64,000 nucleotides of DNA from a bacterium (GCA_965219955.1 OZ244799.1:2016001-2080000), one strand, 5' to 3'; counted from the first letter of the stretch, positions 18,206 to 45,881 are shown. Numbers and translations: made by a program. The notes: generated by a model not told the origin, from the sequence alone.

Positions 18206-18865
18206 TTATCTCGCCTTCATCCCGTATTTCTCGTACTTCTTGGACGAGGCGGTACCGAGCTTGGCGGATTGGGGCGTCTTGAGTTCGAGCAGCCAGGGCC
18301 GCTCGGCCGAGGTGGCCCGCACGGCGTCGAGGAGCCCCTGCTCATCGCCTTCGCTCTCCCAATCGCCCTCTTCGAGCTTCACGAAAACGGGTTTGCCCTC
18401 GCCGAAATCGAGCGTGGGAACGCCGAAAATGCCCTGCTCGGCCGCGTCCTCATGCTCTTGCGCGATGAGGGGGATGGTGGCGCCGCTTTTCATGTCCTCC
18501 TCCCAGCGTTCGACGTCCAAGCCCACTTCCACGGCGATATCGCGCAGAACCAGTTCACTGGTGATGTCCTTGCCGTCCTGGTGTCTCGCCCGGTGGAGCG
18601 CCACGTGGTATTTATCGAACTGCGTCTCGCCCTGCAAGGCAGCGCACTTGGCAGCCTGATGCGGGGGGAGATCCCTGCTCGGGAAGGTCTTGTCCTCCCA
18701 GGCCTTCCAGTCTTCGCCCCGCGAGGGGCCGAAATTCGCCTGCTCGAGCACGAAGGCCTTGTAATCCACTTTCAGATCGCTTCTTTTCTCCTGAAGACGA
18801 ACGAGCCACTCCATGGCTCTGTAGGCGTAGGGTCAGACGTAGCAGTTCCACATGGTGACGTTCAT
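18206..18865 (-). CDS. DsbA/FrnE-like thioredoxin-fold selenoprotein (Sec at codon 11, CYVU-PYA)
   Basis: AGGAG RBS + ATG 18865; MNVTMWNCYV-TGA-PYAYRAMEW is in frame with ORF 18206-18814; cis-Pro loop FGVPT; hairpin 13 nt after TGA. Confidence 0.82.
18803..18819 (-). promoter_or_regulatory. Putative bacterial SECIS hairpin
   Basis: GAGCCA-UGGAG-UGGCUC, 13 nt downstream of the in-frame UGA (18833-18835). Confidence 0.65.
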
Positions 18866-18973
18866 GATTTTCTCCTCAAGATGAGCCGTAAAGAGACATT
18901 GCGCGCCAATCATACACCACAAGAACACAGATGAAAAAGCAGCGCAAAATCTTTTGAAAACAGCCGAATTCCG

Positions 18974-19573
18974 CTAATTTTCCGGCGCGAGCGCCCTGTT
19001 CAACAGCGCCTCCGCACCCGCATCGAGAGAAAGCTCCCTGGCGGCCTCCTGCCCGCGCGCGGACATTTTTACCCAGGTTTTCCGCAAGATGCCGATGATT
19101 TTCTCCTCATCATGAAGCCGTGAAAAATCCCAGAAATAGCTTTCCAGAAACACCAGACAGGCGACGTCCTCGAGCATCTGGGTTTCCGGGCTTGATTTCA
19201 ATCTCTGTTTTTTCAACATCTTCCGCACCCGGGCTATCGTTTCCTCATCGTAACCCACCTCCTCAAGAATCCCGGCGGCTTTCTCCCCATGATAGTCGTA
19301 GAGGCGGGTCCGCCATTGGTGATACCCCTTTCGACCCAGAGGGTAATCCGAGCGAGGAATCTCCCATCTGCATATATGCTGGCTCCGAACAGCCAGACGA
19401 AGGGCCTCCGAGGCTTGCGGCTCGATGGTTTCGAGCCATCTCGTCATTCTCATCGAATACAAAAGCTCTTTGGGGTAATCCTCGCCCTCGAAACTCTCGG
19501 TATTCGGATCCTCGGAATTCGCTTCATCGATGAGACGCAGAGCATCTTCAAGACGTTTGGGATCTTCACTCAT
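18974..19573 (-). CDS. DUF4202 family protein
   Basis: IDEANSEDPN...LYSMRM...RSQHICRWEIPR..YP.GR.GY..WR...LEDVACLVFL. Confidence 0.85.
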   Translation of the reverse strand: MSEDPKRLEDALRLIDEANSEDPNTESFEGEDYPKELLYSMRMTRWLETIEPQASEALRLAVRSQHICRWEIPRSDYPLGRKGYHQWRTRLYDYHGEKAAGILEEVGYDEETIARVRKMLKKQRLKSSPETQMLEDVACLVFLESYFWDFSRLHDEEKIIGILRKTWVKMSARGQEAARELSLDAGAEALLNRALAPEN

Positions 19574-19690
19574 GATTTACACCTTCTCGGTTGCGATAAG
19601 CATCAACAGAATCATTCCAGACAAGATAACTCCAGAATAAACGCTTGCTTGGGTTGACAAAAGCAGGAGAGTAAAATATTTTTCTGAAAA

Positions 19691-19711
19691 TGTTAAGTGT
19701 TTTACTTAACA
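19691..19711. promoter_or_regulatory. Perfect 8-5-8 palindrome, candidate operator
   Basis: TGTTAAGT-GTTTT-ACTTAACA in the AT-rich divergent region before cobA; TTGACA at 19654-19659. Confidence 0.6.
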
Positions 19712-19749
19712 ATAAAAAGAAAAATTGATTTTTATACGGGAATCTCTAC

Positions 19750-20559
19750 ATGTATCAAGGAAAAGTTCAGATTGTGGGAGCAGGCCCTGGAGATCCGGAC
19801 TTGCTTACACTCAAGGCGGCAAAAGCTCTCTCAAATGCAGACTTGGTGGTTTATGATCGTCTTGTGAACCCCGAAGTTCTTGAACTTTGCCCGGAAAACT
19901 GCCAACTCATCAATGCGGGAAAATCCAGCGGTCGACACACCATGAGCCAAGATGACATCAACGCAGCTCTAATCCATTTCGCTCAGCGCGGTTATCAAGT
20001 GGTGCGTCTAAAAGGCGGGGACCCTTTCGTGTTCGGTCGTGGCGGCGAGGAAGCGCAGGCACTGGCAGATGCCGGTATTGATTTTGAAATCATACCAGGC
20101 ATCAGTTCCGCTTTAGCTGTGCCCGCCTATGCCGGAATACCCGTCACACACCGAAAGCTCGCCTCGTCGTTCACGGTCGTAACTGCACATGAAGACCCCG
20201 GAAAACCAGAAACGCAAGTGGATTACGCGTACTTGGCGAAGAACAGGGGGACGCTTGTTTTCCTCATGGGCGCGCGCTCCATCGGACGCATATCATCCGC
20301 TTTGATGGAAAACGGCATGTCGAAAGACACGCCCGCCGCCATCATTGAAAATGGAACCACAAACAGGCAGTTGGCCTACCGATGTTCTTTGGAAGAAGCA
20401 TCCAGCCTCGCGCAACGCGAAGAAATATCCCCCCCCGCTGTTTTTCTCGTCGGACCCGTCGCCGGTCTTGAAGACCTCGTTTGGTTCGAGGCCGACGAGA
20501 GTCAAGAAATCTCCTGGCGCTGTTCCACGGAAGACCCCCTGAGCAAAGTCATTTCGTAA
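19750..20559 (+). CDS. cobA: Uroporphyrinogen-III C-methyltransferase
   Basis: VGAGPGDPDLLTLKA, RLKGGDPFVFGRGGEE and GIPVTHR motifs. Confidence 0.95.
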   Translation: MYQGKVQIVGAGPGDPDLLTLKAAKALSNADLVVYDRLVNPEVLELCPENCQLINAGKSSGRHTMSQDDINAALIHFAQRGYQVVRLKGGDPFVFGRGGEEAQALADAGIDFEIIPGISSALAVPAYAGIPVTHRKLASSFTVVTAHEDPGKPETQVDYAYLAKNRGTLVFLMGARSIGRISSALMENGMSKDTPAAIIENGTTNRQLAYRCSLEEASSLAQREEISPPAVFLVGPVAGLEDLVWFEADESQEISWRCSTEDPLSKVIS

Positions 20560-20627
20560 ATGCCGGGCTTTAGCCCGGACCATCATTCATTATCCAACAT
20601 GTACGTAGCCGTTCACGTAAGGAGTAA

Positions 20628-22430
20628 GTGATGCACGAAGAATCACGAAAACCATTGTCTCGGGAAACAGGCGTCATTCCGGTGATTCCCGAAGAATTCG
20701 ATGATTTTGAAACACAAGCCACCAGATTCCGAAACGGGGAACTCGATAACAGCGAGTTTCTCCCCTATCGCTTAAGGCGCGGCGTATATGGCCAGCGCCA
20801 GGCGGACGCACAGATGGTGCGCGTGAAAATTCCTTTCGGCGGCCTGAGCGCTTCCCAACTCGAAGCCCTGGGGCGTGTATCGCGTGATTACGTGCCGTTG
20901 GGAAAAGGTCACGTGACGACACGGGAAAACGTGCAGTTTCATTTCGTTCCTCTCGACCAGTCCGCCGATGTCCTGAGGCTTCTGGGCGAAGTAGGACTGA
21001 CCACGCGGGAAGCATGTGGAAATTGCGTGAGAAACGTCACCGGTTGTCCCTATGCGGGCGTTTGCAAGGATCAGGTTTTCGACGCTACTCCCTATGCAGG
21101 CGCATTTGCGCGTTACTTCGTCCGCAGAGATTTCACACAGGACCTGCCGCGCAAATTCAAGGTGGCGTTCTCGAGTTGCGCTTCGGACTGCGTGGTCGGC
21201 GGAATTCATGACATCGGGTTCATCCCGGTTATCAAGGAGATGGAAGGAACTCCCGTGCATGGCTTCAAGATGCTTGTCGGAGGCGGACTCGCTACTTTCG
21301 CGCGTACCGCCGAGGTGCTTTACGAGTTCGTTCCGGTGTCCGATTTCCTGAGGGTGAGTGAAGCCCTCATCCGGGTTTTCGACCAGGCTGCTGAACTTCG
21401 CAAATCCCGCTTCAAGGCGCGCATCAAGTTCCTCGTAAGCTGGATAGGGATAGACGGGCTGCGAGAACGCGTCGAGGAAGAACTCAAAAAGGACTGGGCG
21501 AAAGATCCCGTCAGTCCCGAACCTTATCTTTGGAAAGATGATGAAGAAACCGACGCTCCACCCGTCTTGAATACCCTGAACGGGGCGGGAGCCAGCCCGA
21601 ATGGCGACGCTGCGGATTATCACGCCTGGAGAAAAACGAACGTCACCGCACAGAGGCAAGAAGGCTACTTCGCCGTCGATGTAAAACTCCCGTTGGGGAA
21701 CATCCATACGGATCAGTTCTTCGCCCTGGCCGACCTCACCCGGCGTTTCGCGAGAGGGCGCGCAAGAACGAGTTTCGAGCAAAACCTCGTGCTCAGGTGG
21801 GTGCGCGAAGGCGAACTTTACCCCCTCTGGAAAGAGCTTCAGAGAATCGGGCTCGCCGAAAAAGGGGCCAGAGAGATATCCGACGTGGTTTCCTGCCCGG
21901 GAACGGATTCATGCAAACTCGGCATCACCTCTTCCATGGGCCTGGCAAACGCCATTCGTGAAACACTTCATGAGATTGATCAGGATCCTCTTACGCGGGA
22001 GATGCACATCAAGATGAGCGGTTGCCCGAATTCCTGCGGGCAACACCACATCGCCAACATCGGGTTTCACGGGGGGACGCTCAAGGCGAACGGCGCGATG
22101 CTGCCCGCTTATGAAATTTTCCTCGGCGGTCAATACGATGGCACCGACGGAGAAATCCGCATCGGAAAACGCATCCAGGTTCGGATTCCGGCAAAACGCG
22201 TTCCTGCTGCACTCAAGAAAATGTTGTCCCACTACCAGGAAAACAGAAACGAGAGCGAGCGATTCAGCGAGTTTTTGGATCGTGTGGGGAGTGCGTCCTT
22301 TGAAGACTTGCTGCAGGAGTTTCACCTGGCCGGTCAGTTCAACGACGAGCCCGATTCCGATTTGTTCATCGACTGGAGTCAGGACAGGCAATACGTTCTG
22401 GAAAGAGGAGAAGGCGAATGCCTGGCCTAG
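20628..22430 (+). CDS. Siroheme-dependent sulfite/nitrite reductase (Sir/NirA type)
   Basis: GVYGQRQ, TTRENVQ, LPRKFK, SCPGTDSCKLG and SGCPNSCGQH motifs; C-terminal GEGECLA. Confidence 0.92.
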   Translation: MMHEESRKPLSRETGVIPVIPEEFDDFETQATRFRNGELDNSEFLPYRLRRGVYGQRQADAQMVRVKIPFGGLSASQLEALGRVSRDYVPLGKGHVTTRENVQFHFVPLDQSADVLRLLGEVGLTTREACGNCVRNVTGCPYAGVCKDQVFDATPYAGAFARYFVRRDFTQDLPRKFKVAFSSCASDCVVGGIHDIGFIPVIKEMEGTPVHGFKMLVGGGLATFARTAEVLYEFVPVSDFLRVSEALIRVFDQAAELRKSRFKARIKFLVSWIGIDGLRERVEEELKKDWAKDPVSPEPYLWKDDEETDAPPVLNTLNGAGASPNGDAADYHAWRKTNVTAQRQEGYFAVDVKLPLGNIHTDQFFALADLTRRFARGRARTSFEQNLVLRWVREGELYPLWKELQRIGLAEKGAREISDVVSCPGTDSCKLGITSSMGLANAIRETLHEIDQDPLTREMHIKMSGCPNSCGQHHIANIGFHGGTLKANGAMLPAYEIFLGGQYDGTDGEIRIGKRIQVRIPAKRVPAALKKMLSHYQENRNESERFSEFLDRVGSASFEDLLQEFHLAGQFNDEPDSDLFIDWSQDRQYVLERGEGECLA

Positions 22431-22870
22431 AAAAACAATTGGAATTTCTGGACGATACGCCCGAGGACCAGATAAAAACTGCTGTCTTGCTCATCGGTCA
22501 CGGCAGTCGCGCGCAAAACGCCAACGAAGCGCTGTTCCTCGTCGTGGAGCATTTTCAAAAAGCATGGCCGCATCGCATATTGAAAGCCGCTTTCCTGGAG
22601 ATCAGTTACCCCTCCATTCCAGAGGGAATCGACTTGTGCGTAGCGAAAGGGGCTGAGAGAATCATCGTCATCCCTTACTTTCTTTTCAGGGGCAATCACG
22701 TGAAAGTGGACTTGCCCGTCTTCATCAATGAAGGCCGGAGGAAATATCCGGATATCGACGTCATTTTGGGCCCGCATCTCGGCTTTCATCCCAAGATGAT
22801 CGAGATCGTCGATGAACGAATCCAACAGGTGTTGGACACGCTAAAATTCGAGGAGAATGTGCTCTCATGA
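22418..22870 (+). CDS. Sirohydrochlorin chelatase (CbiX/SirB, short form)
   Basis: LIGHGSR, AFLE...P and PYFLFRGNHVKVDLP motifs. Confidence 0.9.
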   Translation: MPGLEKQLEFLDDTPEDQIKTAVLLIGHGSRAQNANEALFLVVEHFQKAWPHRILKAAFLEISYPSIPEGIDLCVAKGAERIIVIPYFLFRGNHVKVDLPVFINEGRRKYPDIDVILGPHLGFHPKMIEIVDERIQQVLDTLKFEENVLS

Positions 22871-23841: not shown

Positions 23842-23893
23842 CGCTCAGGTCAAAGCGCCTTGATGGGCTCGTATACTTCTCTATAATCGAAGT

Positions 23894-24790: not shown

Positions 24791-24959
24791 GGCAGCTTGG
24801 CAATTCCATGAAACACCTATGGAGTCAACTTTTCATTTCCATGTTTTAAAATCGTGCGCTGGTCTGGAAGAGGAAAAAACCAGTTGCGGAAGGTCAAACC
24901 TTGGGATACATTTGAATGAAATTACTAAGTTGCCCCTCCATCAAGGAGAACTCCACGAC

Positions 24960-25298
24960 ATGATGAACATCGGGGAAGAAAAAGCGGATTCTGTTGTCAT
25001 CGTTGCGATTGAAGGGCGCGTCGACGGTCTCACTGCACCGGAACTGGAAAACCGGATTTCGGAAATCGTCGACCGTGGTGATGCCCAGGTTCTACTTGAT
25101 TGCGCAGGAATGACATATGTCAGTAGCGCCGGTCTGCGCATATTTCTCACAGGCGCGAGAAAATGCCAGCAAAGCGGAGGCAATTTGATGATCTGCTCGT
25201 TACAGCCCGATTGCAAGTCAGTAATAGAAACCAGCGGTTTCCATACCGTAATCGATTGCCACGACACTCGAGAGGCAGCCCTCGCGGCTGCTTCATAA
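24960..25298 (+). CDS. STAS-domain anti-sigma-factor antagonist
   Basis: GRVD..TAPELE and YVSSAGLR motifs; AAGGAG RBS. Confidence 0.9.
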   Translation: MMNIGEEKADSVVIVAIEGRVDGLTAPELENRISEIVDRGDAQVLLDCAGMTYVSSAGLRIFLTGARKCQQSGGNLMICSLQPDCKSVIETSGFHTVIDCHDTREAALAAAS

Positions 25299-25309
25299 AG
25301 GAGCGCTCC

Positions 25310-25963
25310 ATGCTGACATTTGTCGATGAAATCCTGTTGCTGATGCTGGATGACGAAAAAGGCTCGTTCCTCCCCATCCGCGAAAGCACGATGGGATATG
25401 TGCTCGCGGGCGCCGTTCTCATGGATCTGGCCTTTGCAAACCGCATCGACACCGACCCCAACCAGTTGATGGTTCTGGACAAAACGCCGATTGGCCACTC
25501 GCCGCATGACCGGATTCTCGAAAATATCGCGTCTTCCAGCGAAACCAGGGATACGAAGGCCTGGATTGAAACGATCTCCCGTGAGGCCGGTGAAATCCGC
25601 GAGCAGTCACTCGCCAGCTTGGTAGATACCGGCATTTTAGAATCCCAGGAGGAAAAGTTTCTTTGGGTCTTCCGGGCGCGGAGATACCCGACGATCGACG
25701 GTCGCGCCGAGCGCGAAGTGAAGTTGCGCATCACCGGCGTCCTGCTATCGGATGAAACTCCGGATCCCAAAGATGTCGCTCTGATCTGCCTTGCCGATGC
25801 ATGCAATATTCTGCGCGACGTGTTTTCCGACAGGGAGATCAATCGCATCCGCCCTCGTATCGATCAGATTCGGAAGCTGGATCTCATCGGACGTGAAGTC
25901 AGTGGAGCGATTCAGGAAATCGAACAAGCGATCATGGCGGCGATGACGCATGCTCACCACTAG
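25310..25963 (+). CDS. GPP34/GOLPH3 family protein
   Basis: MLTFVDEILLLMLDDEKG...LAGAVLMDLA...LVDTGIL...RRYP; AAGGAG RBS. Confidence 0.85.
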   Translation: MLTFVDEILLLMLDDEKGSFLPIRESTMGYVLAGAVLMDLAFANRIDTDPNQLMVLDKTPIGHSPHDRILENIASSSETRDTKAWIETISREAGEIREQSLASLVDTGILESQEEKFLWVFRARRYPTIDGRAEREVKLRITGVLLSDETPDPKDVALICLADACNILRDVFSDREINRIRPRIDQIRKLDLIGREVSGAIQEIEQAIMAAMTHAHH

Positions 25964-26094
25964 AAATCGCGGATTTTGAGCACCTCTGAGGTGAAGAGCA
26001 TCAACAGCTTCCATTCATAGACGGTCGATTCGGAAAGGTTTTCCCATTTCCTTAGTCGCTAGCGTCATTTTCGAAAGCGCCATATGCCTTTTGC

Positions 26095-26553: not shown

Positions 26554-26577
26554 CAAATTCAACCTTGAAATTCCATG

Positions 26578-26976: not shown

Positions 26977-27005
26977 GCGTATTCCTTTCTGTTTCTTTGA
27001 AAGAC

Positions 27006-28634: not shown

Positions 28635-29576
28635 TCACGAAAATAAGGATTTCGGCAACATGGCGTGAACCCCTTTTACCCCATTTACGATTTGAGTCAC
28701 TCGCAGATCCACGGCAAGGCTGCAAAGCGTATATGCGTCATCCCTGCTCATGCCGCGCAACTCTCCCAGAAATTTTATCGTCTCACGCAGCGCCATCTTG
28801 GCCGCGTTATCGAGAATGGGATCAAAACCCATCAGGATATAATGCGTGTCGGTTTCCGCCCGGGGATTTTCGAGGCGCATATCCTTTCTGACGATGATTT
28901 CCATCGTCCCCGAGAGACCCGTTTCGATGGCCGTCAAACAGGCCTCCCCGTCGCCCTGGCAACCATGCCCATCGCCTACGGAGAACAACGCGCCCTCGTT
29001 GAAAATCGGGAAGTAGGCGACAGAACCTGATATGAGTTCCTTGTTGTCCAGATTCCCGCCCCAGGCGCTTGGGGGATAGCTCCCCACACGGCCCATGGCA
29101 GGCGGGGGCGCCACGCCGAAGTTTCCGAAATAAGGCCTGAGAGGCACCCTGACGCCCGCGCCCCAGTCCCCCGTTTGCGCTTCCAGGTCGAGGTCCACGA
29201 TGACGGCGCGCGTATACGGGAAATCCTCCGGCAATCCCCCCATCATCGGCCTGATGGCGTTATATCCCCAGTCATAGCGCGTCTTGACCTCGTGGATGCG
29301 GACTTCCAGCACATCTCCGGGTTGTGCGTCTTCTACAGCCACAGGGCCCGTCATGATGTGGGGGCCAAGTTCCTGGGGAACTTGCGCGATGATGTCCCTT
29401 AAATTCCGGGACGCCCGGTCTCCGAGTTCCGCCAGATATTCCTCCCGGCCCGATTCCGTATGAACTTCTAGCGTGTCGCCCGAGCGAATCCTCATTACAG
29501 GCTCCAGGGAGGCGTCATAAAAACCCCAATGGACGGTATCCGGATTCGCAATCAATTCATGAGTCGCCATCAACAC
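28635..29576 (-). CDS. Acetamidase/formamidase family protein (copy 3)
   Basis: HWGFYD, HIMTGPV, GGNLDNKEL and GDGHGCQGDGE motifs. Confidence 0.92.
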   Translation of the reverse strand: MLMATHELIANPDTVHWGFYDASLEPVMRIRSGDTLEVHTESGREEYLAELGDRASRNLRDIIAQVPQELGPHIMTGPVAVEDAQPGDVLEVRIHEVKTRYDWGYNAIRPMMGGLPEDFPYTRAVIVDLDLEAQTGDWGAGVRVPLRPYFGNFGVAPPPAMGRVGSYPPSAWGGNLDNKELISGSVAYFPIFNEGALFSVGDGHGCQGDGEACLTAIETGLSGTMEIIVRKDMRLENPRAETDTHYILMGFDPILDNAAKMALRETIKFLGELRGMSRDDAYTLCSLAVDLRVTQIVNGVKGVHAMLPKSLFS

Positions 29577-30526
29577 TCTCCTCCATCAAAAATTTCTTTT
29601 GGCAGCATCGCATGAACCCCTTTGACCCCGTTCACAATCTGCGTGATGCGCAAATCCACCGCCAGGCTGCACAGCGTATAGGCGTCATCTTTGCTCATGC
29701 CGCGCAATTCCCCCAAAAACCGGATCGTCTCCCTGAGCGCCATTTTGGCCGCATTGTCGAGAATCGGGTCGAACCCCATGAGGATATGATGAGTCGGTGT
29801 CTCGGCGCGGGGCATTTTCAAACCCAAATCCTTTCGGACGATGAGTTCGATTTTCGCGGACATGCCGCATTCCAGGGCCGAGAGACAGCTTTCCCCGTCT
29901 CCCTGACATCCGTGCCCGTCACCTATGGCGAACATAGCCCCATCCTGGAATACGGAAAGGTAGACGCGAGAACCTGCGATAAATTCCTTGTTGTCCATGT
30001 TTCCGCCCCAGATTCCCGGCGGAGTGGATGGAACACGACCAAAATCGCTGGGCGGAGCTACGCCGAAGTTGCCGAAATAAGGCCTGAGCGGCACTTTCAC
30101 GCCCGCGTTCCAATCCCCCGTATTCGCTTCTTTGTCTATTTCCACGATTACCGTTCTCGAATACGGAAAATCCTCGGGCAAGCCACCCGCCAGGGGCCGG
30201 ATGACGTTAAAACCCCAATCGTAGCGCGGCCGGATATCCAGAAATCTCACTTCCAAAACATCTCCCGCCACGGCTCCTTCGACAGCGATGGGTCCGGTGA
30301 GGATATGGCCGCCCAGGTCCCTCTTGCCGCGCTCGGCGATGTCCCGCAGATTGTCAGAAGCTCTTTCCCGTATCGGAGATTCAAGAGTCCGGATCCCCGG
30401 TTCGGTGTGAATTTCGAGCACATCGCCTGAAGCGACGGTGAGAACCGGGGAAAGCCCGGCGTCATAATAGCCCCACTGGATGTTGTCGGGGTTTTGCGCA
30501 ATCACATGTTCGGCCAAGGATGACAC
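29570..30526 (-). CDS. Acetamidase/formamidase family protein (copy 2)
   Basis: HILTGPI, GGNMDNKEF and GDGHGCQGDGE motifs. Confidence 0.92.
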   Translation of the reverse strand: MSSLAEHVIAQNPDNIQWGYYDAGLSPVLTVASGDVLEIHTEPGIRTLESPIRERASDNLRDIAERGKRDLGGHILTGPIAVEGAVAGDVLEVRFLDIRPRYDWGFNVIRPLAGGLPEDFPYSRTVIVEIDKEANTGDWNAGVKVPLRPYFGNFGVAPPSDFGRVPSTPPGIWGGNMDNKEFIAGSRVYLSVFQDGAMFAIGDGHGCQGDGESCLSALECGMSAKIELIVRKDLGLKMPRAETPTHHILMGFDPILDNAAKMALRETIRFLGELRGMSKDDAYTLCSLAVDLRITQIVNGVKGVHAMLPKEIFDGGEC

Positions 30527-30542
30527 CTTATAAATATGAAAC

Positions 30543-31478
30543 TTATTCGAATAAAGATTTGGGCACCATGGCGTGAACGCCCTTGGTGCCGTTCACGATT
30601 TGGGTCACGCGCAGGTCGACCGCCAGGCTGCACAACCTGTACGCGTCATCACGGCTCATGCCCCGAAGCTCACCCAGGAACTGAATCGTCTCCCGCAAAG
30701 CCATCTTCGCCGCATTGTCGAGAATCGGGTCAAAACCCATCAATATATAGTGCGATTCCGTCTCCGCGCGCGGGGTCTTGATATCCATGTCCTTTCGGAC
30801 GGTCATCTCGAAAGTGCCGATGAGGCCCATCTCGATTCCGTTGATGTTCGCCTCCCCATCCCCCTGGCAACCGTGCCCGTCACCCACGGAGAACAAGGCG
30901 CCTTCGCTGAAAACAGGCAGATAAATCGTCGAGCCGGCCGTGAATTCCTTACAATCCGTATTGCCGCCCCACTCTCCCGGAGGAGACGACGGCACGCGCC
31001 CAAGCGCCGGAGCGGGCGCTACCCCGAAATTTCCGAAAAAAGGCCCGAGCGGCACCTTGACTCCCGCGCCCCAGTCGCCCGTTCCACTCTCCTCGTCCAC
31101 CTCGACAATCACAACCCTCGTATAAGGGAAATCCTCCGGCAGCCCACCCATCAGGGGTCTGAAGCCGTTGTAGCCCCAATCATACCGGGGTCTGATATCA
31201 CGAATCTTGATCTCCAGAACATCGCCGGGTTCGGCGCCTTCGACCGCCACCGGACCCGTCATGATGTGCGCACCGGGCCCCTGTTCCATCGTCTCCAGGA
31301 TTCGCCTCAGATTATCCGAGACTCTCTCGGGATGTTTTTGCAGAAAATCCTTGCGCCCAGACTCGGTTTTCACGACAAGCGTATCGCCGGAAGCGATCGT
31401 CATAACGGGAGCAAGAGCTGAGTCATAAAAGCCCCAATGGCTGGTATCGACGGTGGTATCCAGTTCATGCGTGGCCAA
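30543..31478 (-). CDS. Acetamidase/formamidase family protein (copy 1)
   Basis: HIMTGPV, GGNTDCKEF and GDGHGCQGDGE motifs. Confidence 0.92.
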   Translation of the reverse strand: MATHELDTTVDTSHWGFYDSALAPVMTIASGDTLVVKTESGRKDFLQKHPERVSDNLRRILETMEQGPGAHIMTGPVAVEGAEPGDVLEIKIRDIRPRYDWGYNGFRPLMGGLPEDFPYTRVVIVEVDEESGTGDWGAGVKVPLGPFFGNFGVAPAPALGRVPSSPPGEWGGNTDCKEFTAGSTIYLPVFSEGALFSVGDGHGCQGDGEANINGIEMGLIGTFEMTVRKDMDIKTPRAETESHYILMGFDPILDNAAKMALRETIQFLGELRGMSRDDAYRLCSLAVDLRVTQIVNGTKGVHAMVPKSLFE

Positions 31479-35718: not shown

Positions 35719-36183
35719 CTACGATGCGCCGGTTTTCTTTTTACGGTCGGTGTATTCCTTGAAATATCCCGCGATAGAGGAAGCCTCCCAGTCAAAATCA
35801 ATGTCGCGCGCTTTTTGAAGCACTTCGTCTCCGCTCAGGCCTTCTTCTTCGGCCAGATGAACAAGCGAGCAAATCCCGGCTCGCCTCACGCCTTTTCAGT
35901 GAACGTAAACCAGTCCGTCTTTCCTGGCTTCACTGAGTTTTTGGTGGATTTCCGCCGATAACTCATCGCTTATGTTGTCGGCAGTCGCAGGTACATGCAA
36001 GAAGTTCATACCCAGTTCATGCGCCGCCTCTCTCTCCGCATCGGGCGGAAGTTCCGGTTCTTCCTCATCTGCGGAACGAACATTCACCAGGGTTTTTATC
36101 CCTTTATTCGCCAGACTCTCCATATCCTTCCGCCCCGGCTGGCTACCGAACACGAGATTATCCGCCAATTCGATGTAGTCCAT
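35719..36183 (-). CDS. DUF442/Blh-type (PTP-like) sulfurtransferase/phosphatase selenoprotein, Sec at codon 96
   Basis: Track ORF stops at VYVH-TGA, but the frame continues UKGVRRAGICSLVHLAEEEGLSGDEVLQKARDIDFDW...KKKTGAS-TAG (154 aa) and ends at the terminator; hairpin follows the TGA. Confidence 0.85.
35863..35886 (-). promoter_or_regulatory. Putative bacterial SECIS hairpin
   Basis: AGGCGAGC-CGGGAUUU-GCUCGCUU starting 9 nt after the UGA (35896-35898). Confidence 0.65.
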
Positions 36184-36206
36184 ACCCTTTTTCCTCGACG
36201 ATAGTT

Positions 36207-37049
36207 TCAGACTCGTTGCACCAGCTCCCGACAGCGAAGCAGGCAGGTTACTTTTTCATCTTCTCCATCACGCTTATAAATTCCAAGCAAATTGTTGAGC
36301 ATTCTCTCCAAGATACGGCGAGGAGGGGTTTCCTGTAAGAACCGCATATCGAAATGATACCCGAGTCCACGCAGAATCGCCGCGCAATCCCCCACGCTCA
36401 GGCGTTTCCCCCTATCGAAGGGGTCCAGAAAAATGGGCTCCTCATCACCTTGGTACTTCACGATAAAATGTCCCGGCATTCCGACTCCGTGAAACGGAAG
36501 TCCCAACCGTGCGCCAAGAATCAAATACAAAGCGGAAAGTGATATTGGAATGCCCCGTCTGCGCTCCAGCACACGATCCATAAAGCTGTTCTGCGCATCA
36601 TAGTAATTGTCCCGTTCGCCATCGAAGCGAAGCTCCCCGTGTAGATATTCGACGACTTCGGTGACAATGGCGTCGGCTTTATTTATACCCACCAAACGTC
36701 CACGCAAATGATTCTCCATCTTCAGCAAATCGTCTTTTTTCGTCTCCATGTTTTCGAGAGGATGGCCGAAAGACGCCAGCAAGAAGCAAGCATCCTCCAG
36801 ATCCACATCTTCAACCGAGGAAAGAGACCAGTCCGAAAAAGCGATTTCGATCTGTCTGTAATGGAACTCCATAAGCGATGACGGCAGCATGACATCGCTT
36901 ACCTCACGATTTTTCAGCATGTGCAGGAGTCTTTTCTGCTCTTTGGTCGAGAATTCCGAAACCTGTCGGTCCAAGGCCGACACCACCCGCGGTGAACCAT
37001 CATCCAACAAGCGGCAAACGGCCTCTAATTGCGAGTCACTCAACGACAA
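36207..37049 (-). CDS. SirB1 / transglutaminase-like family protein
   Basis: F.G...NYYDAQNSF...VLERRRGIPISLS, GMPGHF, FLDPF and RMLNNL motifs. Confidence 0.9.
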   Translation of the reverse strand: MSLSDSQLEAVCRLLDDGSPRVVSALDRQVSEFSTKEQKRLLHMLKNREVSDVMLPSSLMEFHYRQIEIAFSDWSLSSVEDVDLEDACFLLASFGHPLENMETKKDDLLKMENHLRGRLVGINKADAIVTEVVEYLHGELRFDGERDNYYDAQNSFMDRVLERRRGIPISLSALYLILGARLGLPFHGVGMPGHFIVKYQGDEEPIFLDPFDRGKRLSVGDCAAILRGLGYHFDMRFLQETPPRRILERMLNNLLGIYKRDGEDEKVTCLLRCRELVQRV

Positions 37050-38779: not shown

Positions 38780-38944
38780 TGAAAATTTTTTGCTTGACAC
38801 AAACCTCTCAACAACGCATGTTATACTCTATCTCGTTCGTATAGCTTAGGGGGATTGTTCATTTCCCTGTGAATCAGAGCCCAGGCAGGGGCTGGGCATG
38901 ATATCCTCGACCTCATGAGGGGTCTCCGCGCGGGAGGATTGTAG

Positions 38945-39151
38945 GTGCCAGAGGGAACAGTCAAGTGGTTTAGCGACAAAAAGGGGTATGGCTTCATTTC
39001 TCGGGAAGATGGTGACGACATCTTCGTTCACTTCTCAGCCATCGTTGCGGATGGATTCAAATCACTGAAAGAAGGTGAAAAGGTCACATTCGAGATCACC
39101 CAAGGTCCCAAAGGGCTTCAGGCGGCGAATGTAACCAAACTGGAAGAATAA
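38945..39151 (+). CDS. cspA: Cold-shock protein
   Basis: [22 protein letters not shown] and [10 protein letters not shown]; extended -10 (TG-T-TATACT at 38819-38827) implies a long 5' UTR. Confidence 0.95.
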
Positions 39152-39189
39152 CGTTCCTCTCTATCATCGTACCTCTCGACTGGGAAAAG

Positions 39190-40545
39190 CTACGCGCTTT
39201 CTCGAACATACTCTAAAACCGTCTCTGCGGCTTTATCCCCGCTTCGCACCGCTCCTTCTACGGTGGCCGGCAAACCTGTGCGAGTCCAATCTCCAGCAAG
39301 AAAAAAACCCTCAATCGGTGTTCTGGTATCTAACCGGTAATTTTGCTCCGCCACCCCGTTCGCCCAGGTAGCGGCGCGCTCCCGCACCACCAAAATATCT
39401 CGAATACGGTTACGGGGAATCATGCGATTCAAGCAATCCCTCGCAGACGACTCGATGATCGACCGCTTCTCAGATGCGATGGAATCCTCCGCCCCGGCCA
39501 ATAGACATACCAGGTTTTCCGCACATTTCCCGCCAGTTTCAAGTCGAAACAACCAGTCCCACTCCTCACCCACTATTGCCTCAAAAGGAGGCCCCTCATC
39601 CGGTTCTTCAAGCCAGAAATATGCGCTGGCGATAGGCCCGGGGCGTAGTTTTCCCAGATTCGAAAAAAGTGATTGCTGACCGAGTTCGCTGCCTAGCAAT
39701 CTGCCCAAAACGTCGGGTGGCACGGCGGAAATGACTGCGGCTGCGGGTAAAGTCTCTCGCTCCCTTACCATCACACCGTTCATTTTTGAATCATTGACCT
39801 CAAAACCGACTGCGGGTTGCTGAAGCCTCACCTCTCCACCAAGGTGCCGGATGCGTTGGGCCGCTCTGTTCGCCCACAGCGTACCCAATGCCTTCATCGG
39901 CACCCCCAAGGCGGCTCCCTTCGGCCCATCGGCAAAGGCTTCCCGAATCACCGCCTTGAACAATTCCGCACTCCCCAGTTCCAAAGGCAAGTTCAACACC
40001 GCGCGTGCAAACGGCTCCCAAAACCAGCGCACCGCCTCATTCTTCTGGCCAAGGTCCTCCAGCATGTCACTCATGGATTCATCCGGGTTCTCATCGCCCG
40101 ATTTGGAAACAATCTTCGAAAGACCTCTCAAAAGATTTATTTTTTCCAAAAAGCGGGGTCCACGCCATTTGAGCAAGCCTTGAAGTTGCGCAAAAACCCC
40201 TCCTCCCTCTGGAAATGACAACTGCGTCCGTCGGGTCGACCCCGCTTTCCGAATACGGTAGCCCACTTCCAGGGAAGGGGAGAAAAAAATATCATCGGCG
40301 GCGCCCACTCTTTCCAACAATGAGCGCAATGCCGGATTGGCCGCCATGAACAAATGCGGGCCCCAGTCCAACTCCATGTCCGTGGATGAATGCTTGAAAC
40401 TGCGCGCCCGGCCACCGAGAAACTTCCCGGCCTCGAGCACCACAACCTTGACGCCAGATTCGGCGAGGCGCAAAGCGGCGGACAGGCCCGCTGCGCCGGC
40501 TCCGATAATGATGACCGGCCTCTCGGATCCGCCCAGCTCAGACAT
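39190..40545 (-). CDS. hpnE: Hydroxysqualene dehydroxylase (FAD-dependent)
   Basis: IIGAGAAGLSAA, LGGRARSF, ERAAT and LAGDWT.TGLPATVEGAVRSG; directly after hpnCD. Confidence 0.85.
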   Translation of the reverse strand: MSELGGSERPVIIIGAGAAGLSAALRLAESGVKVVVLEAGKFLGGRARSFKHSSTDMELDWGPHLFMAANPALRSLLERVGAADDIFFSPSLEVGYRIRKAGSTRRTQLSFPEGGGVFAQLQGLLKWRGPRFLEKINLLRGLSKIVSKSGDENPDESMSDMLEDLGQKNEAVRWFWEPFARAVLNLPLELGSAELFKAVIREAFADGPKGAALGVPMKALGTLWANRAAQRIRHLGGEVRLQQPAVGFEVNDSKMNGVMVRERETLPAAAVISAVPPDVLGRLLGSELGQQSLFSNLGKLRPGPIASAYFWLEEPDEGPPFEAIVGEEWDWLFRLETGGKCAENLVCLLAGAEDSIASEKRSIIESSARDCLNRMIPRNRIRDILVVRERAATWANGVAEQNYRLDTRTPIEGFFLAGDWTRTGLPATVEGAVRSGDKAAETVLEYVRESA

Positions 40546-42705
40546 CTACGCTTCCAGAAAACAGCGAAGCGCTTCTAGTAGTTTTTCCCTGGACTTCAAA
40601 GAGGGGCGATAATCCATGTGCCGAAAATCATTCTTCTCCATCTCACTCAGAAGTCTCCGATAAATTCGGCCCATGATTCTCGCGGGAAGAAGGTTCCCTG
40701 TCTTCTCGTGACTCAAGGCTTCGTTCGCTCCCTCGTAGTATTCACGCGCTCGATGCGCCAAGGACCGAAGAAGGCTTAAAACCTCGGAAGTATCGTTTTT
40801 ATATCTCAAATCGGAGACCGTTACGCCATATTTCTCCATTTCGCTTCCGGGAATATAAATGCGCCCTTCCTCGGCATCTTCCCAAACGTCTCTCAAAATG
40901 TTCGTCATCTGCAGCGCCCTGCCCAAACAAACGGCGTAGTCGTTGGCGAATTCCGATTTCGCCTCGAAGATGCCCAGGCACGCCAGCCCTACTGCGGAAG
41001 CCACCTTGTCACAATAATTTTCAAGGTCTGACAAATTTTCAAATCGACTATCCTCCAGATCCATCGCCACCCCGTCACAAATCGCCCGGAAATGTTCCGG
41101 CGGCAAGTCGTATTTTCTCGACGCCCATGCGAGTTCCCCGATTATCGGGTGGGATGGACTCTCCTCGCCCAACTGATCCAGCGCCTCTTTCCATTCGCGC
41201 AACGTGGTTTTCTTGCCGGATATCTCACCCGGCTCATCGGCGATGTCGTCGGCCATGCGGCAATACGCGTAAACCGCCGTGATGGCGCGCCTTTTCTCCG
41301 CCGGCAGGCTGAAAAAAGACAGATAAAAATTCGACCGGCTCGCGCGAATGAACCAGCGGCAGTATGCGCGGTTCAACCCTTCTTCGGCATGCCGATCCAC
41401 ATTGGATTCGAGTCGATAGACCGGGCGAAACACCGCGAGCAACGATTTGGCCTTATCCCGGCCATTCAAAAGCGGAGATCCCGCGCAGACGTTCCATTCC
41501 GCACGGGAAATGGCGTCAAGCGCCGCAATGCCGCCGCGCCAAATCGCGCGAAGCTCACGGCCCAATGCGCCGCGGGTGCGGTACAAAAGAGGCAGGCCCT
41601 GCCTGAAGAGGCGCTTCGTCCTTTTTATCTGAAAAACCAGGAACGCTCGAAGCTGAGGCGTCGCCGCGTCGGCAAGCAAATCATCCTCGGAGACGGAGAA
41701 TCTTTTCATCTCATCCTGAGGCATATAGATAATGCCTCGCTCGGCGTCTTCTTTCACATCTTGCAAGTGATTCGCAATCTGCAAGGCCGTGCAGATGGCA
41801 TCTGACGCGCGAAGGGCCTCTTCATCACGTATCCCGTGCAGCATGAGAACGATTCGCCCGACGGGATCCGCCGATCGGCGACAATAATCGAGCAAGGCTT
41901 CATAGTTCGGATACCGGAGGACTGTGACGTCCTGTTTGAATGCCGACAGCAAATCCCGAAAAGGCTGCAAGGGCAAATCGAATTGCTGAATCGTGTCGGA
42001 GAGCGCAATGAAAACGGCTGTTTCCGCAACTCCTTGCTGGGCCAATACGAGTTTTTCTTCCCACTCATCAAGGCGCGCAAGTCGCTCCCGGGCGGGCTCT
42101 GTCGAATCCGCGATATCATCCGCACCCCTGGCGAACGCATATACCGCGGCAACGTGCGGTCTTATCTTCGCCGGAAGCAACTTCGAGGCGACGGGAAAAT
42201 TCTCGTAGTGGCCGACTACGATTTTCATGCACTCATCATAAGCGGCGCTTAAATCAGCCTCTGAAACATTTTTTGCCTCTTTGTCTGAATCCCGTGTCTC
42301 CTCGCCATTCATGAGAGATTCTATCAACTGCGCATCCGCGGGCAGGAAATCAAACTCCCCCAATGAGGCAGGATGCACCCACTCGTGTTCCGCTACCCCC
42401 AAATTCTCCGCCACTCCGCTTTCCCACTCACAATCATAAAAGCGAAGGTGGACGTCCCTGTCTGGATAACGGTGTCGTGTCTCCCAATGAAGACGGCCAA
42501 CGCGCACATCGATCCCTAATTCTTCGCAAATTTCCCTTTGCAATGCTTCCCGGGGATTCTCGCCGTACTCAATTTTGCCGCCGGGAAACTCCCAGAAGCC
42601 CGGCATATGTCCGCCCTCCGGGCGCTGGCAGATGAGAATGCGTCCCTCGCTCCGGACAATCCCGGCAACGACGCTTAGCTCTAAAACGGCAACTTCGTCC
42701 TTCAT
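40546..42705 (-). CDS. Triple fusion: NUDIX hydrolase (MutT/NudG-like) + HpnC + HpnD squalene synthesis domains
   Basis: Nudix box GGKIEYGENPREALQREICEELG; HYENFPVAS..ADDIAD..ANHLQD (HpnC); SNFYLSF..ADDIAD..TNILRDV.ED..GRIYIP (HpnD). Confidence 0.85.
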   Translation of the reverse strand: MKDEVAVLELSVVAGIVRSEGRILICQRPEGGHMPGFWEFPGGKIEYGENPREALQREICEELGIDVRVGRLHWETRHRYPDRDVHLRFYDCEWESGVAENLGVAEHEWVHPASLGEFDFLPADAQLIESLMNGEETRDSDKEAKNVSEADLSAAYDECMKIVVGHYENFPVASKLLPAKIRPHVAAVYAFARGADDIADSTEPARERLARLDEWEEKLVLAQQGVAETAVFIALSDTIQQFDLPLQPFRDLLSAFKQDVTVLRYPNYEALLDYCRRSADPVGRIVLMLHGIRDEEALRASDAICTALQIANHLQDVKEDAERGIIYMPQDEMKRFSVSEDDLLADAATPQLRAFLVFQIKRTKRLFRQGLPLLYRTRGALGRELRAIWRGGIAALDAISRAEWNVCAGSPLLNGRDKAKSLLAVFRPVYRLESNVDRHAEEGLNRAYCRWFIRASRSNFYLSFFSLPAEKRRAITAVYAYCRMADDIADEPGEISGKKTTLREWKEALDQLGEESPSHPIIGELAWASRKYDLPPEHFRAICDGVAMDLEDSRFENLSDLENYCDKVASAVGLACLGIFEAKSEFANDYAVCLGRALQMTNILRDVWEDAEEGRIYIPGSEMEKYGVTVSDLRYKNDTSEVLSLLRSLAHRAREYYEGANEALSHEKTGNLLPARIMGRIYRRLLSEMEKNDFRHMDYRPSLKSREKLLEALRCFLEA

Positions 42706-42720
42706 CCCATCTCCATGAGC

Positions 42721-43518
42721 TTAACCCTGCGCAGCCTCAGGCTCCATATCATCCGGCAACCGTCTCAAGACACTGGAAAACACGATGGGTTCCGCCATGG
42801 GTACCGCCTTGGACAGTTCTTTTTCATCTGCAAAATACTCGCCCGGCAGGACCAATCCCGGCATCCGCAACTCGACCGAATCCTTTGAGAACGGCCATGG
42901 GGATATTTCCAGATCATCGGTGTTTGCGGTTTTCACTTTCAACCCACCCTGAATCAAGGGGTGGACTGCGGCATCGGGCGGGGTAATTTCCGGCGCCCGG
43001 CACGCCAACAGGGATAATGTATCGCAAACCCCGAGCAAAGACACGGAATTTTCGATCGCATCTACGTGCTTCGGCTCAATCAGGGCGTCCAACTCTTTCT
43101 GCCGTTTCGATTCAGCGTGAATGAACCCGTTCAGCACCTTGGAAACTTCCAGCGGGGCGCCTCTTCTCCCACCTGCTGCGAGCGAAGAGAAGTGGAGGCT
43201 GACCAAATATCCGGAAAACGGATGGAAGGAAGCGCAAGAATCGATACCCTTCGACCATATTTCCACCGCTTTGTCCGCCGTGATGCCGAAAAAACTGTAA
43301 GGCAGTTTCGTCAGCGCATCCCACCTCGGGGTGGCGTCCGAGCGGCACCACCCGACGTCATGATTGTCGATGGCGAACAAGACTTTCTCTGTGAGTTCAT
43401 CCGGCGGTGAGGGTAGCGATTCAATGCCTATCCAATTTCGCGCAATCGTACCCGCGGCCCGGGCGTGGTCATGTTGAGAGATGAGACGAACATGGTTATC
43501 TCGCGGACAAACAATCAT
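42721..43518 (-). CDS. DUF3891 family protein
   Basis: MIV...LISQHDHARAAG.IA..W, HDVGW, LVSLH, CDTLSL and PWPF motifs. Confidence 0.82.
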   Translation of the reverse strand: MIVCPRDNHVRLISQHDHARAAGTIARNWIGIESLPSPPDELTEKVLFAIDNHDVGWCRSDATPRWDALTKLPYSFFGITADKAVEIWSKGIDSCASFHPFSGYLVSLHFSSLAAGGRRGAPLEVSKVLNGFIHAESKRQKELDALIEPKHVDAIENSVSLLGVCDTLSLLACRAPEITPPDAAVHPLIQGGLKVKTANTDDLEISPWPFSKDSVELRMPGLVLPGEYFADEKELSKAVPMAEPIVFSSVLRRLPDDMEPEAAQG

Positions 43519-43737
43519 TTGAAACACCAAAAAACGGCGGAGAATACTTTCCAAAACCGAAGAATCTCCAGGTCCAAGCCTGAAAGTATTTTATTTCGCC
43601 GATGAAAAATGTAACAACCGCCATTGCGGCAAACAAGAAAATTCAACATCCACTTGAACAAACGTGTGCAAAACACATAATTTTGCTACAAGTCAGTATA
43701 TATTCTTGTCCTGGAAATAAGGAAATCGCGCCAAATC

Positions 43738-45174
43738 ATGAATCGAAAAAATTTCCCTCAGGATCCCGGTTCAGTCGGCCTCACGAAAACACGGACCATC
43801 AAGCTTCCGGAGCCGTTTCGGACCGATTCCGGCGAAACATTGCCTGAAATCCAGGTGGCATATGAGACATACGGCGAACTCTCCCCAAATGCCGATAATG
43901 CCGTTTTGGTCATCCATGCGCTTACGGGCGACGCGCACGCAGCCGGCTTCCACAGCCCCGACGATCCGCGTCCGGGCTGGTGGGACCCGATGATCGGCCC
44001 CGGCAAGGCCATCGATACCCGAAAATACTTCGTCGTCTCCTCAAACAACCTGGGGGGATGCTCGGGCACCACGGGGCCCGCTTCGATCAACCCCGCTACG
44101 GGCAGAGCGTACAACACCGGCTTTCCCGTCACCACGGTGGAGGACACCGTTCGCGTCCACAAGCTGCTTCTCGATCATCTGGGCGTAAAACGCCTCAAAA
44201 CGGTCATCGGCGGCTCGCTCGCCGGGATGCAGACCCTGGAATGGGGCCTGCGCTACAGCGATATCTGCGACTCCGTCATTCCGGTCGCGGGCGCCGCCCG
44301 CCTGGATCCGATGGGCATCGCATGGGACAAAATCGCCCGCAGGGCCATCACGGCGGACGGCGACTGGAATGACGGCGACTACGCCGCCGGCCAGGGACCA
44401 CGCAAGGGCCTCAGCGCGGCGCGCATGCTGGCCCACATCACCTACCTGAGCCGGGGAATCATGTGGGAGAAATTCGGCCGCGAGATCAGGGACAAGGACA
44501 AAATGCTGGAGGATATCGCCTCGCGCTTCGAGGTGGAGAGTTACCTCGATCACCAGGGGGACAAATTCGTCGATCGCTTCGACGCGAACTCGTATCTGTA
44601 TATCTCCCGCATGATGGACTTATACGACGCCTCCCTGGGCTTCGAGAGCCTCGAGGCCTCGCTGTCCCGGCTGAAAACCAAATGCCTGCTCGTATGCTTC
44701 ATATCCGATTGGCTCTTCCCGCCGGAGAGAAGCATGGAGATCGCCCAGATTCTCCAGAAACTCAGGCATGAAGTGGAGTTGCACACGGTGGAGTCCACCT
44801 ACGGGCACGACGCGTTTCTGGTCCAATACGACAAGCTCACCGAGATCGTCGGCGGCTTTCTCGAAAGACTCGAAAACGGCGGCCCGATCGGCATCAACGC
44901 GGCTCCCATACCCCGGGGCTGCAAGCGGCTGGTTCTTTCCGTGCCGGGTCATCTCGTTGAGAAACCCGTTTTGTGGGAACTCGGCCGTAAATACTCGTTT
45001 TCCATCAACATCATGAGGAGCGAGCTGGACGCCCAATCGGGGTGGCAGGTTTGCGAATTCGACGGAAGCGAGGAGGAGATCGCACAGGCCGTGACGGAAC
45101 TCCGGGATATGGGCGTGTGGGTCGACCCCGGAGGGCATGACGCCATCGACCACGACCGCGCCGAAGTGGTATAA
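43738..45174 (+). CDS. metX: Homoserine O-acetyltransferase with C-terminal NIL domain
   Basis: HALTGD, PGWWD, IGGSLAG, RFDANSY, SDWLFPP and GHDAFL; tail PVLWELGRKY...INIM...G..EEI..AV..L...GV.V. Confidence 0.9.
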   Translation: MNRKNFPQDPGSVGLTKTRTIKLPEPFRTDSGETLPEIQVAYETYGELSPNADNAVLVIHALTGDAHAAGFHSPDDPRPGWWDPMIGPGKAIDTRKYFVVSSNNLGGCSGTTGPASINPATGRAYNTGFPVTTVEDTVRVHKLLLDHLGVKRLKTVIGGSLAGMQTLEWGLRYSDICDSVIPVAGAARLDPMGIAWDKIARRAITADGDWNDGDYAAGQGPRKGLSAARMLAHITYLSRGIMWEKFGREIRDKDKMLEDIASRFEVESYLDHQGDKFVDRFDANSYLYISRMMDLYDASLGFESLEASLSRLKTKCLLVCFISDWLFPPERSMEIAQILQKLRHEVELHTVESTYGHDAFLVQYDKLTEIVGGFLERLENGGPIGINAAPIPRGCKRLVLSVPGHLVEKPVLWELGRKYSFSINIMRSELDAQSGWQVCEFDGSEEEIAQAVTELRDMGVWVDPGGHDAIDHDRAEVV

Positions 45175-45248
45175 ACCAGAAAATTGCCGCGCACGTATAT
45201 TCACAGGTACATTCAAGAGATTCGATACAAACCAGACGGAGGCACGCC

Positions 45249-45881
45249 ATGAGTGAGTTGAAAGAACCGATCGTTGTGGTGAAATACTCGGACTACACCT
45301 GACCATTTTGCTATGTCGCCACCGTGGGTGGCACGCCCGTGATCGAAGAAGACCCCGACGTCGTCGTCGAGTGGGTCAGTTGGGAGGGGAGACCCCCCGG
45401 CCAGGAGTTCGCCGGCTACTCGCCGGAGCAGAAACAGGAAAGTTACGAGAACAACCACAAACCTCTCGCCGAGAAGTACGACGTGCCCATCCGGGTGGCG
45501 GGTGGCGACTACCGCACCACGAACCTCCACATGGCCACCTATTACGCCCGCGACAAGGGGAAGTTCAAGGAATTCCGGAATCGCTGCTACAAGGCCCGCT
45601 GGGAGGACGACCTGAATCTCGAGGATTTGGACGTCATCGCCGGTCTCGGTCAGGATGTCGGCCTGGACGGTGAGGAAATCAAGGCCGTCATCGCCGAGGG
45701 ACGCTACATCGGCGCGCTCCACAGCCAGCGCGCCCAGGGAAAAGGGTTGGGCATCTTCGGCATCCCCACGTTCGTGGTGGAGGGGAAGCTCTTCTGGGGC
45801 AAAGACGTCATCGACGACGTCAAGGACGAGGTCGCGCGCGTGAAGCAGGAGCGCATCGAGAAGGAAAAAGAAGAGAGCTAG
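45249..45881 (+). CDS. DsbA/FrnE-like selenoprotein (Sec at codon 18, UxxC)
   Basis: GGAGG RBS + ATG 45249; KYSDYT-TGA-PFCY is in frame with ORF 45324-45881; FGIPTF cis-Pro loop and FWG.D. Confidence 0.88.
45315..45334 (+). promoter_or_regulatory. Putative bacterial SECIS hairpin
   Basis: GU-c-GCCACC-GUG-GGUGGC-AC, 12 nt after the UGA (45300-45302). Confidence 0.65.

Follow-up and report, generated by a model that had tools for sequence, protein, structure and literature searches.

A 64-kb stretch of bacterial DNA (GCA_965219955.1 OZ244799.1:2016001-2080000), hereafter called the window, was analysed for genes with an in-frame TGA codon; all gene coordinates are positions within it. Our reading, to which we give a probability of about 0.88, is that the window holds three genuine selenoprotein genes. 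Selenocysteine (Sec, U) would take the place of the nucleophilic Cys in each, with UGA decoded through a downstream selenocysteine insertion sequence (SECIS) and ordinary genes still terminating at TGA. Gene 1 (18206-18865, minus strand, 219 aa) encodes a DsbA-like protein of the DR2335 type with the motif C-Y-V-U-P-Y-A, and its UGA is codon 11 (18833-18835). Gene 2 (35719-36183, minus strand, 154 aa) encodes a stand-alone homologue of the DUF442/TIGR01244-type sulfur transferases, which have a protein tyrosine phosphatase (PTP) fold. Its UGA, codon 96 (35896-35898), lies in an H-U-x4-R loop. Gene 3 (45249-45881, plus strand, 210 aa) encodes a DsbA-like protein of the FrnE type with the motif U-P-F-C, and its UGA is codon 18 (45300-45302). 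Genes 1 and 3 are known kinds of selenoprotein, and gene 2 is a sulfur-transferase-like type without an entry in the latest catalogue.

The positions of the three TGA triplets, and their coincidence with catalytic Cys codons, had been proposed from the nucleotide sequence alone (the sequence-only reading), and both were borne out. The frame was open on both sides of each TGA, as that reading had also held, and each open reading frame (ORF) was continuous when TGA was read as U. The U residues aligned with the active-site Cys of solved homologues: the Cys of D-F-L-C-P-Y-A-W in DR2335 of Deinococcus radiodurans (PDB 7dk9) for gene 1, the loop Cys of the DUF442 protein 2f46 for gene 2, and the first Cys of C-P-W-C in FrnE (5cnw) for gene 3. 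A purine-rich ribosome-binding site was found upstream of the start codon in all three genes. In genes 1 and 3, the Pfam DSBA match regained its N-terminal part once the TGA was read through.

The suspicion that such genes are under-annotated agreed with the public records. Among 25 matches to gene 2, 23 ended exactly at the His before the U column and one ended earlier, and the homologues of genes 1 and 3 nearly all began after the TGA. Gene calling truncates all three genes, either at the TGA or after it, and as a result gene 2 is represented in public databases by a 95-aa stump, and genes 1 and 3 by headless copies without their active sites. The few labelled homologue records were named 'sulfur transferase domain-containing protein', 'DsbA family protein' or 'thioredoxin domain-containing protein', and their source metagenome-assembled genomes (MAGs) bore the labels Nitrospinae, Nitrospinota or Nitrospinaceae.

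Conservation of the TGA codons and hairpins

Gene 2 matched Pfam PF04273 (BLH_phosphatase/DUF442) with 32.5 bits, above the cut-off of 26.1. It stayed below the cut-offs of two NCBIfam models, with 49.1 bits for TIGR01244 (cut-off 85.85) and 62.9 bits for Blh NF040641 (cut-off 625). A HMMER search of 1.84 billion representative proteins with gene 2 gave 960 matches at E ≤ 0.001, and 17 of the best 150 were aligned. All 14 full-length homologues in this alignment had Cys at the U column, within V-H-C-x-x-G-x-R-A-G, and the nearest of them (P0125) shared 44% identity with gene 2. Two more distant homologues, P0153 and P0244 (38% and 34% identity), ended just before the U column; because they stop exactly at the Sec position, Sec forms of DUF442 may extend to their clusters as well. 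The His, the U or Cys, and the Arg at +5 were invariant in 28 sequences of the family. The part of a gene 2 homologue that follows the TGA had been called once as a separate 53-aa ORF (P0211). In another record (P0029, 94 aa, from a 229-kb contig) the Sec region is missing through an internal deletion, and the stretch beyond the TGA continues in frame from the N-terminal part, which shows that this stretch is read as protein there.

A genome scan with the gene 2 alignment identified 17 loci of relatives, five of them titled Nitrospinota or Nitrospinaceae and the others only 'bacterium'. In all 17, codon 96 was TGA and the frame beyond it was conserved as far as an ordinary stop codon. The AlphaFold2 (AF2) model of gene 2 had a predicted local distance difference test score (pLDDT) of 90.9, with a strand at residues 90-95 and a helix from residue 99. 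It has a PTP-like fold with the nucleophile in a [C/U]-x4-R loop after the central strand, and its top fold matches were 3gxh and 2f46, both DUF442 structures, and Tk-PTP, an archaeal phosphatase (template modelling (TM) scores 0.75-0.81). A transglutaminase-like gene (36210-37049, minus strand) ends in TGA 23 nt before gene 2 and is a likely operon partner.

Synteny with the window extended from ~26 kb to 46 kb in 14-17 of the loci. It spans gene 3, which was thus recovered in 16 of the 17; the remaining locus (L002) ends too early. TGA was found at codon 18 in all 16 syntenic orthologues. Variation was biased towards third codon positions on both sides of the TGA, and in codons 2-17, before it, the variable sites numbered 3, 0 and 11 at the first, second and third positions. 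A GGAGG motif before the ATG was conserved, and the sequences of the relatives diverged farther upstream. From the third-position variation upstream of the TGA and the conserved GGAGG it follows that translation of gene 3 starts before the TGA and passes through it. With read-through, the DSBA match of gene 3 reached 95.9 bits (profile positions 2-190), compared with 75.3 bits (60-190) for the truncated ORF. The protein search gave 55 matches, of which 12 were aligned: ten began after the U column, one (P0084, 28% identity) had C-P-F-C, and one (P0059) had W. The P0059 and P0274-P0287 cluster (58% identity to gene 3) includes many full-length members with W at the Sec position, next to cluster mates truncated N-terminally after it. 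The W forms probably stem from gene calling under translation table 4 on short contigs, with TGA rendered as Trp. An alpha/beta-hydrolase+NIL gene precedes gene 3 by 77 nt and is a likely operon partner.

The model for bacterial SECIS elements described in PMC13188914 calls for 3-9 nt in the loop, 4 bp or more in the stem, a G within the first two positions of the loop, a UGA-to-loop distance of 16-37 nt, and a free energy (dG) of -7.5 kcal/mol or lower. Hairpins of this kind followed all three TGA codons. The candidate of gene 1 (18803-18819, minus strand) has a 7-bp stem, the loop GGA, a UGA-to-loop distance of 20 nt and a dG of -8.8 kcal/mol. The hairpin of gene 2 (35863-35886, minus strand) has an 8-bp stem, the loop CGGGAUUU, a distance of 17 nt and a dG of -11.2 kcal/mol. 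That of gene 3 (45318-45332, plus strand) has a 6-bp stem, the loop GUG (G-U-N in relatives), a distance of 21 nt and a dG of -8.9 kcal/mol. In a strict no-bulge implementation, the model fitted all three sites, compared with 131 of the 2003 TGA triplets in the window (6.5%). GC-rich hairpins with a G in the loop had been part of the sequence-only reading and were confirmed; the spacing of 9-13 nt that it gave was not, as the stems begin 13, 9 and 15 nt after the TGA in genes 1, 2 and 3.

The gene 2 hairpin is held at the nucleotide level beyond the needs of the protein. Third codon positions were invariant in 6 of 8 codons inside it and in 20 of 142 elsewhere (Fisher p = 3.5e-4). Across orthologues, 92.5% of the alignment cells paired, compared with 32-50% when the partner strand was slid, and the changes that did occur were one-sided and kept the pairing (A-U to G.U). 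All 17 sequences preserve the gene 3 stem, where the one change is from G-C to G.U; the third base of the loop took all four letters. All three hairpins comply with a bSECISearch-type consensus, but they share neither sequence with one another nor any lineage-specific feature. They had been suggested as the seed of a SECIS covariance model for this lineage. For the same reason, and because the orthologue sets are nearly invariant, they are a poor seed, and the general bacterial model already fits them.

Several results weigh against the selenoprotein reading. The 65-nt folds were no more stable than shuffled sequences (z = -0.26, -0.74 and +0.98 for genes 1, 2 and 3), so that the hairpins alone are weak evidence. 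The gene 2 orthologues showed no compensatory, two-sided base-pair change in the hairpin, and third-position invariance in the gene 3 hairpin was not significant (3/5 vs 60/204, p = 0.16). Rfam families scored below gathering at all three sites; tRNA-Val was the only family found at gathering thresholds. The 64-kb window contained no tRNA-Sec, the selA, selB and selD families had no match among the 144 ORFs scanned (translation table 11), and the loci of the 17 relatives contained no tRNA genes. The Sec machinery is therefore assumed. One relative has a second in-frame TGA in gene 2, at codon 132 (L010:10394-10396), where all other relatives have Trp. It may reflect a mutation, a misassembly or an incipient pseudogene, and because of it in-frame TGAs in the lineage are not strictly confined to Cys positions. 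Finally, the support for gene 1 is at the protein level only, as this gene lies outside the flanks of the 17 loci.

That these are selenoprotein genes and not products of nonsense mutation, as first proposed, is strongly supported for genes 2 and 3, whose TGA, flanking frame on either side and hairpin are kept in 17/17 and 16/16 related genomes, and moderately, at the protein level, for gene 1. By the established bacterial mechanism, the apical loop of the short GC-rich stem-loop, 17-21 nt after the UGA, would act as the SECIS. SelB-GTP-Sec-tRNA(Sec) would bind it and insert Sec at the UGA in place of termination. Sec would then stand in for the nucleophilic Cys of all three proteins. Gene 3 would be a thiol-disulfide oxidoreductase with a U-x-x-C redox pair, and gene 1 a DsbA-like protein that has one U-P-Y-A site, with a Cys at position -3 relative to U. 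By analogy with the Cys family, the sulfane sulfur in transit would be bound to the Sec of gene 2 as a Se-S intermediate.

Gene 1 and alternative readings of the TGA codons

The most serious alternative concerns gene 1 alone. Its translation could begin at an internal ATG (Met18, 18814), with the TGA-containing stretch upstream left untranslated, and the gene would then not encode a selenoprotein. The protein search gave 38 matches, and all 16 that were aligned begin at Met18 or later. The coding part upstream of the TGA is just 10 codons long, and its support is at the protein level. However, a protein starting at Met18 would lack strand 1 and the entire active-site motif of the thioredoxin fold. 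Read-through lifts the DSBA score from 51.9 bits (profile positions 22-172) for the truncated ORF to 68.2 bits, with the match reaching profile position 2 (2-172). The residues gained align with D-F-L-C-P-Y-A-W in DR2335, and it is this Cys that its depositors replaced in the C24S mutant (7dka). The upstream ATG, at 18865, is preceded by a GAGGAG ribosome-binding site, the hairpin fits the bacterial SECIS model, and genes 2 and 3 are cut by gene callers in the same way.

The upstream residues were also folded confidently by AF2, from an alignment of truncated homologues that has no rows over residues 1-17. Residues 2-7 form strand 1, U11 lies at the start of helix 12-27, and the mean pLDDT for residues 1-10 is 89. 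Since strand 1 and the start of helix 1 flank residue 11, U11 is placed by the model at the classical active-site position of the thioredoxin fold. The top fold match was DR2335 (7dk9/7dka; Foldseek E 8e-12, TM 0.75-0.81). Taken together, we consider an internal start of gene 1 unlikely. A DUF971 (GBBH-like_N) gene (17826-18176, minus strand) lies 29 nt downstream of gene 1 and is a likely operon partner. A TauE/SafE sulfite-exporter ORF (17183-17545, plus strand) adjoins gene 1, near a CobA / sulfite-or-nitrite reductase / CbiX cluster at 19750-22867.

In some bacteria, SelB-compatible tRNAs charged with Cys have been reported. The three UGAs could thus be decoded through SECIS and SelB and still yield Cys, and the two outcomes are indistinguishable from sequence. 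Neither the window nor the 17 loci showed such a tRNA, however. Similarly labelled MAGs have been reported to possess the Sec pathway and 48-54 selenoprotein genes (PMC13326102), and DsbA-like proteins with U-x-x-C are an accepted selenoprotein family (PMC1088965). Insertion of Cys is therefore highly improbable, and Sec remains the preferred residue at the three sites.

The two weakest alternatives can be dealt with briefly. Inactivating nonsense mutations or sequencing errors, of which the extra TGA at a gene 2 Trp codon in one relative may be an example, are already contradicted for genes 2 and 3 by the same-codon TGA in 17/17 and 16/16 independent assemblies, with protein-level conservation downstream and third-position-biased change; since all three TGAs also fall at a catalytic Cys position, this explanation has next to nothing in its favour. 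A genetic code in which TGA is sense throughout the genome (NCBI table 4 or 25, for example) would suit the public gene 3 homologues that are full-length with W at the position, but these are confined to one cluster beside N-terminally truncated members, a pattern that fits table-4 gene calling on short contigs. The remark that many genes here end in TGA proved correct: the 46 Pfam-supported genes end in TGA (18), TAG (16) or TAA (12), and the gene that stops 23 nt before gene 2 is one of those ending in TGA. Genome-wide recoding is excluded on this count, and just 2 of 670 TGA triplets in the syntenic region were conserved in a sense frame.

These 670 triplets were covered by a codon-periodicity scan of the syntenic 20.8 kb (25.5-46.3 kb). 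Six of the TGAs were conserved and had coding-like variation to either side; those in a sense frame belonged to genes 2 and 3. The other four (31693+, 36709+, 39821+ and 44949-) are antisense to Pfam-supported genes and were rejected. A tblastn comparison of read-through frames with the relatives' loci was uninformative, because sequences as similar as those of the relatives align in all six frames. When the whole window was scanned by base composition, genes 1 and 3 were recovered and no further sense-frame case appeared; the scan missed gene 2, so its sensitivity is limited. Eight of its matches are antisense to Pfam-annotated ORFs, and one (5205+) lies in repeat-bearing intergenic DNA, with a GC content at third codon positions lower than that of its neighbours. 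Two further read-through candidates, 50213-51166 and 46164-46760 (both minus strand), were discarded as the sequence before their TGA is junk. The TauE/SafE ORF next to gene 1 matches only positions 1-110 of a 237-position profile before it stops at a TGA. It was rejected as a read-through case: the frame beyond holds seven more TGAs, which makes it a truncated or remnant gene.

Relation to known selenoproteins and selenoprotein-rich lineages

DsbA-like selenoproteins with U-x-x-C were described from the Sargasso Sea in 2005 (PMC1088965), and DsbA-like selenoproteins are among the top 20 bacterial selenoprotein families in Table 3 of PMC5029168. Table 1 of a 2026 review (PMC13188914) lists 119 families, including DsbA-like form 1 (U-x-x-C), DsbA-like form 2 (D-x-x-U-P) and five rhodanese-like forms. 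Gene 3 belongs with form 1 (PF01323, U-x-x-C; COG2761/FrnE type). It has both the PF01323 domain and the motif, with U-P-F-C at the position of C-P-W-C in FrnE and G as the first base of the SECIS loop. It is one more orthologue without essential difference, and the public records of its relatives are N-terminally truncated or have W at the site.

Gene 1 resembles DR2335 (7dk9/7dka) in its fold and in the x-x-[C/U]-P-Y-A stretch, with Sec replacing Cys24. It has the U-P of DsbA-like form 2 (PF01323, D-x-x-U-P), but a Cys where Asp is expected (C-Y-V-U-P); DR2335 has D-F-L-C-P. The single U-P-Y-A site is thus accompanied by a Cys three residues before U, and the motif would allow a possible C-x-x-U pair.

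For gene 2, the closest known systems are the DUF442 proteins (PF04273/TIGR01244), such as Blh of Xylella fastidiosa and NMA1982 (2f46), with which it shares the PTP fold. The loop of tyrosine phosphatases is C-x5-R, and x4 instead of x5 marks the sulfur transferases; the [C/U]-x4-R loop of gene 2 is accordingly one residue shorter. Gene 2 differs from Blh and NMA1982 in having Sec for the catalytic Cys, in standing alone at 154 aa without a dioxygenase domain, and in its scores below the TIGR01244 and Blh cut-offs of NCBIfam. In Xylella Blh, the DUF442 domain uses thiosulfate as the donor of sulfane sulfur and passes it to cyanide or glutathione (PMC5823870), and on this ground gene 2 is read as a putative Sec-dependent sulfur transferase. 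Going by the model, in which Tk-PTP is an equally good fold match, it may alternatively have a phosphatase role. The rhodanese-like selenoproteins (PF00581, forms 1-5 of the 2026 review) are likewise sulfur transferases whose short active-site loop holds Sec as the nucleophile, but their fold and Pfam family differ from the PTP-like DUF442 of gene 2.

PF04273, TIGR01244, DUF442 and the phosphatase fold are all absent from the 119 families in Table 1 of the 2026 review (PMC13188914). No Sec-containing DUF442 protein or bacterial tyrosine phosphatase-like selenoprotein was found in the literature, where the TIGR01244/PF04273 matches listed were judged by title and the opening of the abstract and the comparison did not extend to the BSepDB family list (Table S2). 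DUF442 proteins with Sec are thus likely a new selenoprotein family. For the fuller proposal we see even odds. It holds that gene 2 founds an uncatalogued family and is the first Sec enzyme on the protein tyrosine phosphatase fold, a DUF442-type sulfur (or selenium) transferase with a Sec nucleophile, kept together with its SECIS across the Nitrospinota-labelled lineage.

The sequence-only reading had also taken the three genes to indicate a selenoprotein-rich organism, which is plausible by comparison with published genomes. Three MAGs with 54, 50 and 48 selenoprotein genes are among the top ten bacteria in Table 2 of the BSepDB paper (PMC13326102). They are labelled Nitrospinota, Nitrospinaceae and Nitrospinae at NCBI and UBA8248 in GTDB, and the lineage of the window probably matches the one reported there. 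With counts of 48-54 in similarly labelled MAGs already in print, the claim is not new.

Other features of the window and implications

Two sets of intergenic repeats were observed. An element of ~220 nt occurs in at least three copies of 86-96% identity (5421-5647, 14683-14914 and 51183-51417; also 16198-16244). A short palindrome underlies the inverted repeats at its ends. The element gives spurious conserved 'peptides' in several frames and looks like a miniature inverted-repeat transposable element or a repeat of the repetitive extragenic palindromic type. The second set (46486-47012, 49761-49998 and 56482-56786) is 80-100% alike, in direct and inverted orientation, and includes a perfect 40-nt inverted pair (49761-49800 / 49916-49955).

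Two paralogous ORFs (1093-1539, plus strand, and ~50216-50840, minus strand) start with M-T-E-Y-E-A-A-S-L-A, followed by a hydrophobic stretch and a repetitive coiled-coil tail rich in His, Arg and Glu. Neither had a Pfam match, and the second contains a 54-nt tandem repeat at 50267-50623. Three tandem FmdA_AmdA (acetamidase/formamidase) paralogues lie at 28638-31478 (minus strand), ~950 nt apart, with 70-75% DNA identity. A bacterial homologue of GPP34 (Golgi phosphoprotein 3) at 25163-25960 (plus strand, E 4e-48) overlaps the end of an ORF with a STAS domain. A cluster at 39193-43554 (minus strand) encodes an amine-oxidase-type flavoprotein, a 719-aa fusion of a NUDIX domain with two squalene/phytoene-synthase domains, and a DUF3891 protein; we take it to be of the kind used for squalene synthesis.

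What is new in the window is limited to the Sec-containing DUF442 family, and the rest is mostly known. Functional or comparative work on this lineage inherits the annotation error that cuts such genes at or after the TGA. If the reading of gene 2 is true, Sec-containing DUF442 adds a new fold to the selenoenzymes, and gene 2 and its Cys homologue P0125 form a natural Sec/Cys pair, a way to ask what Sec buys a sulfur transferase.

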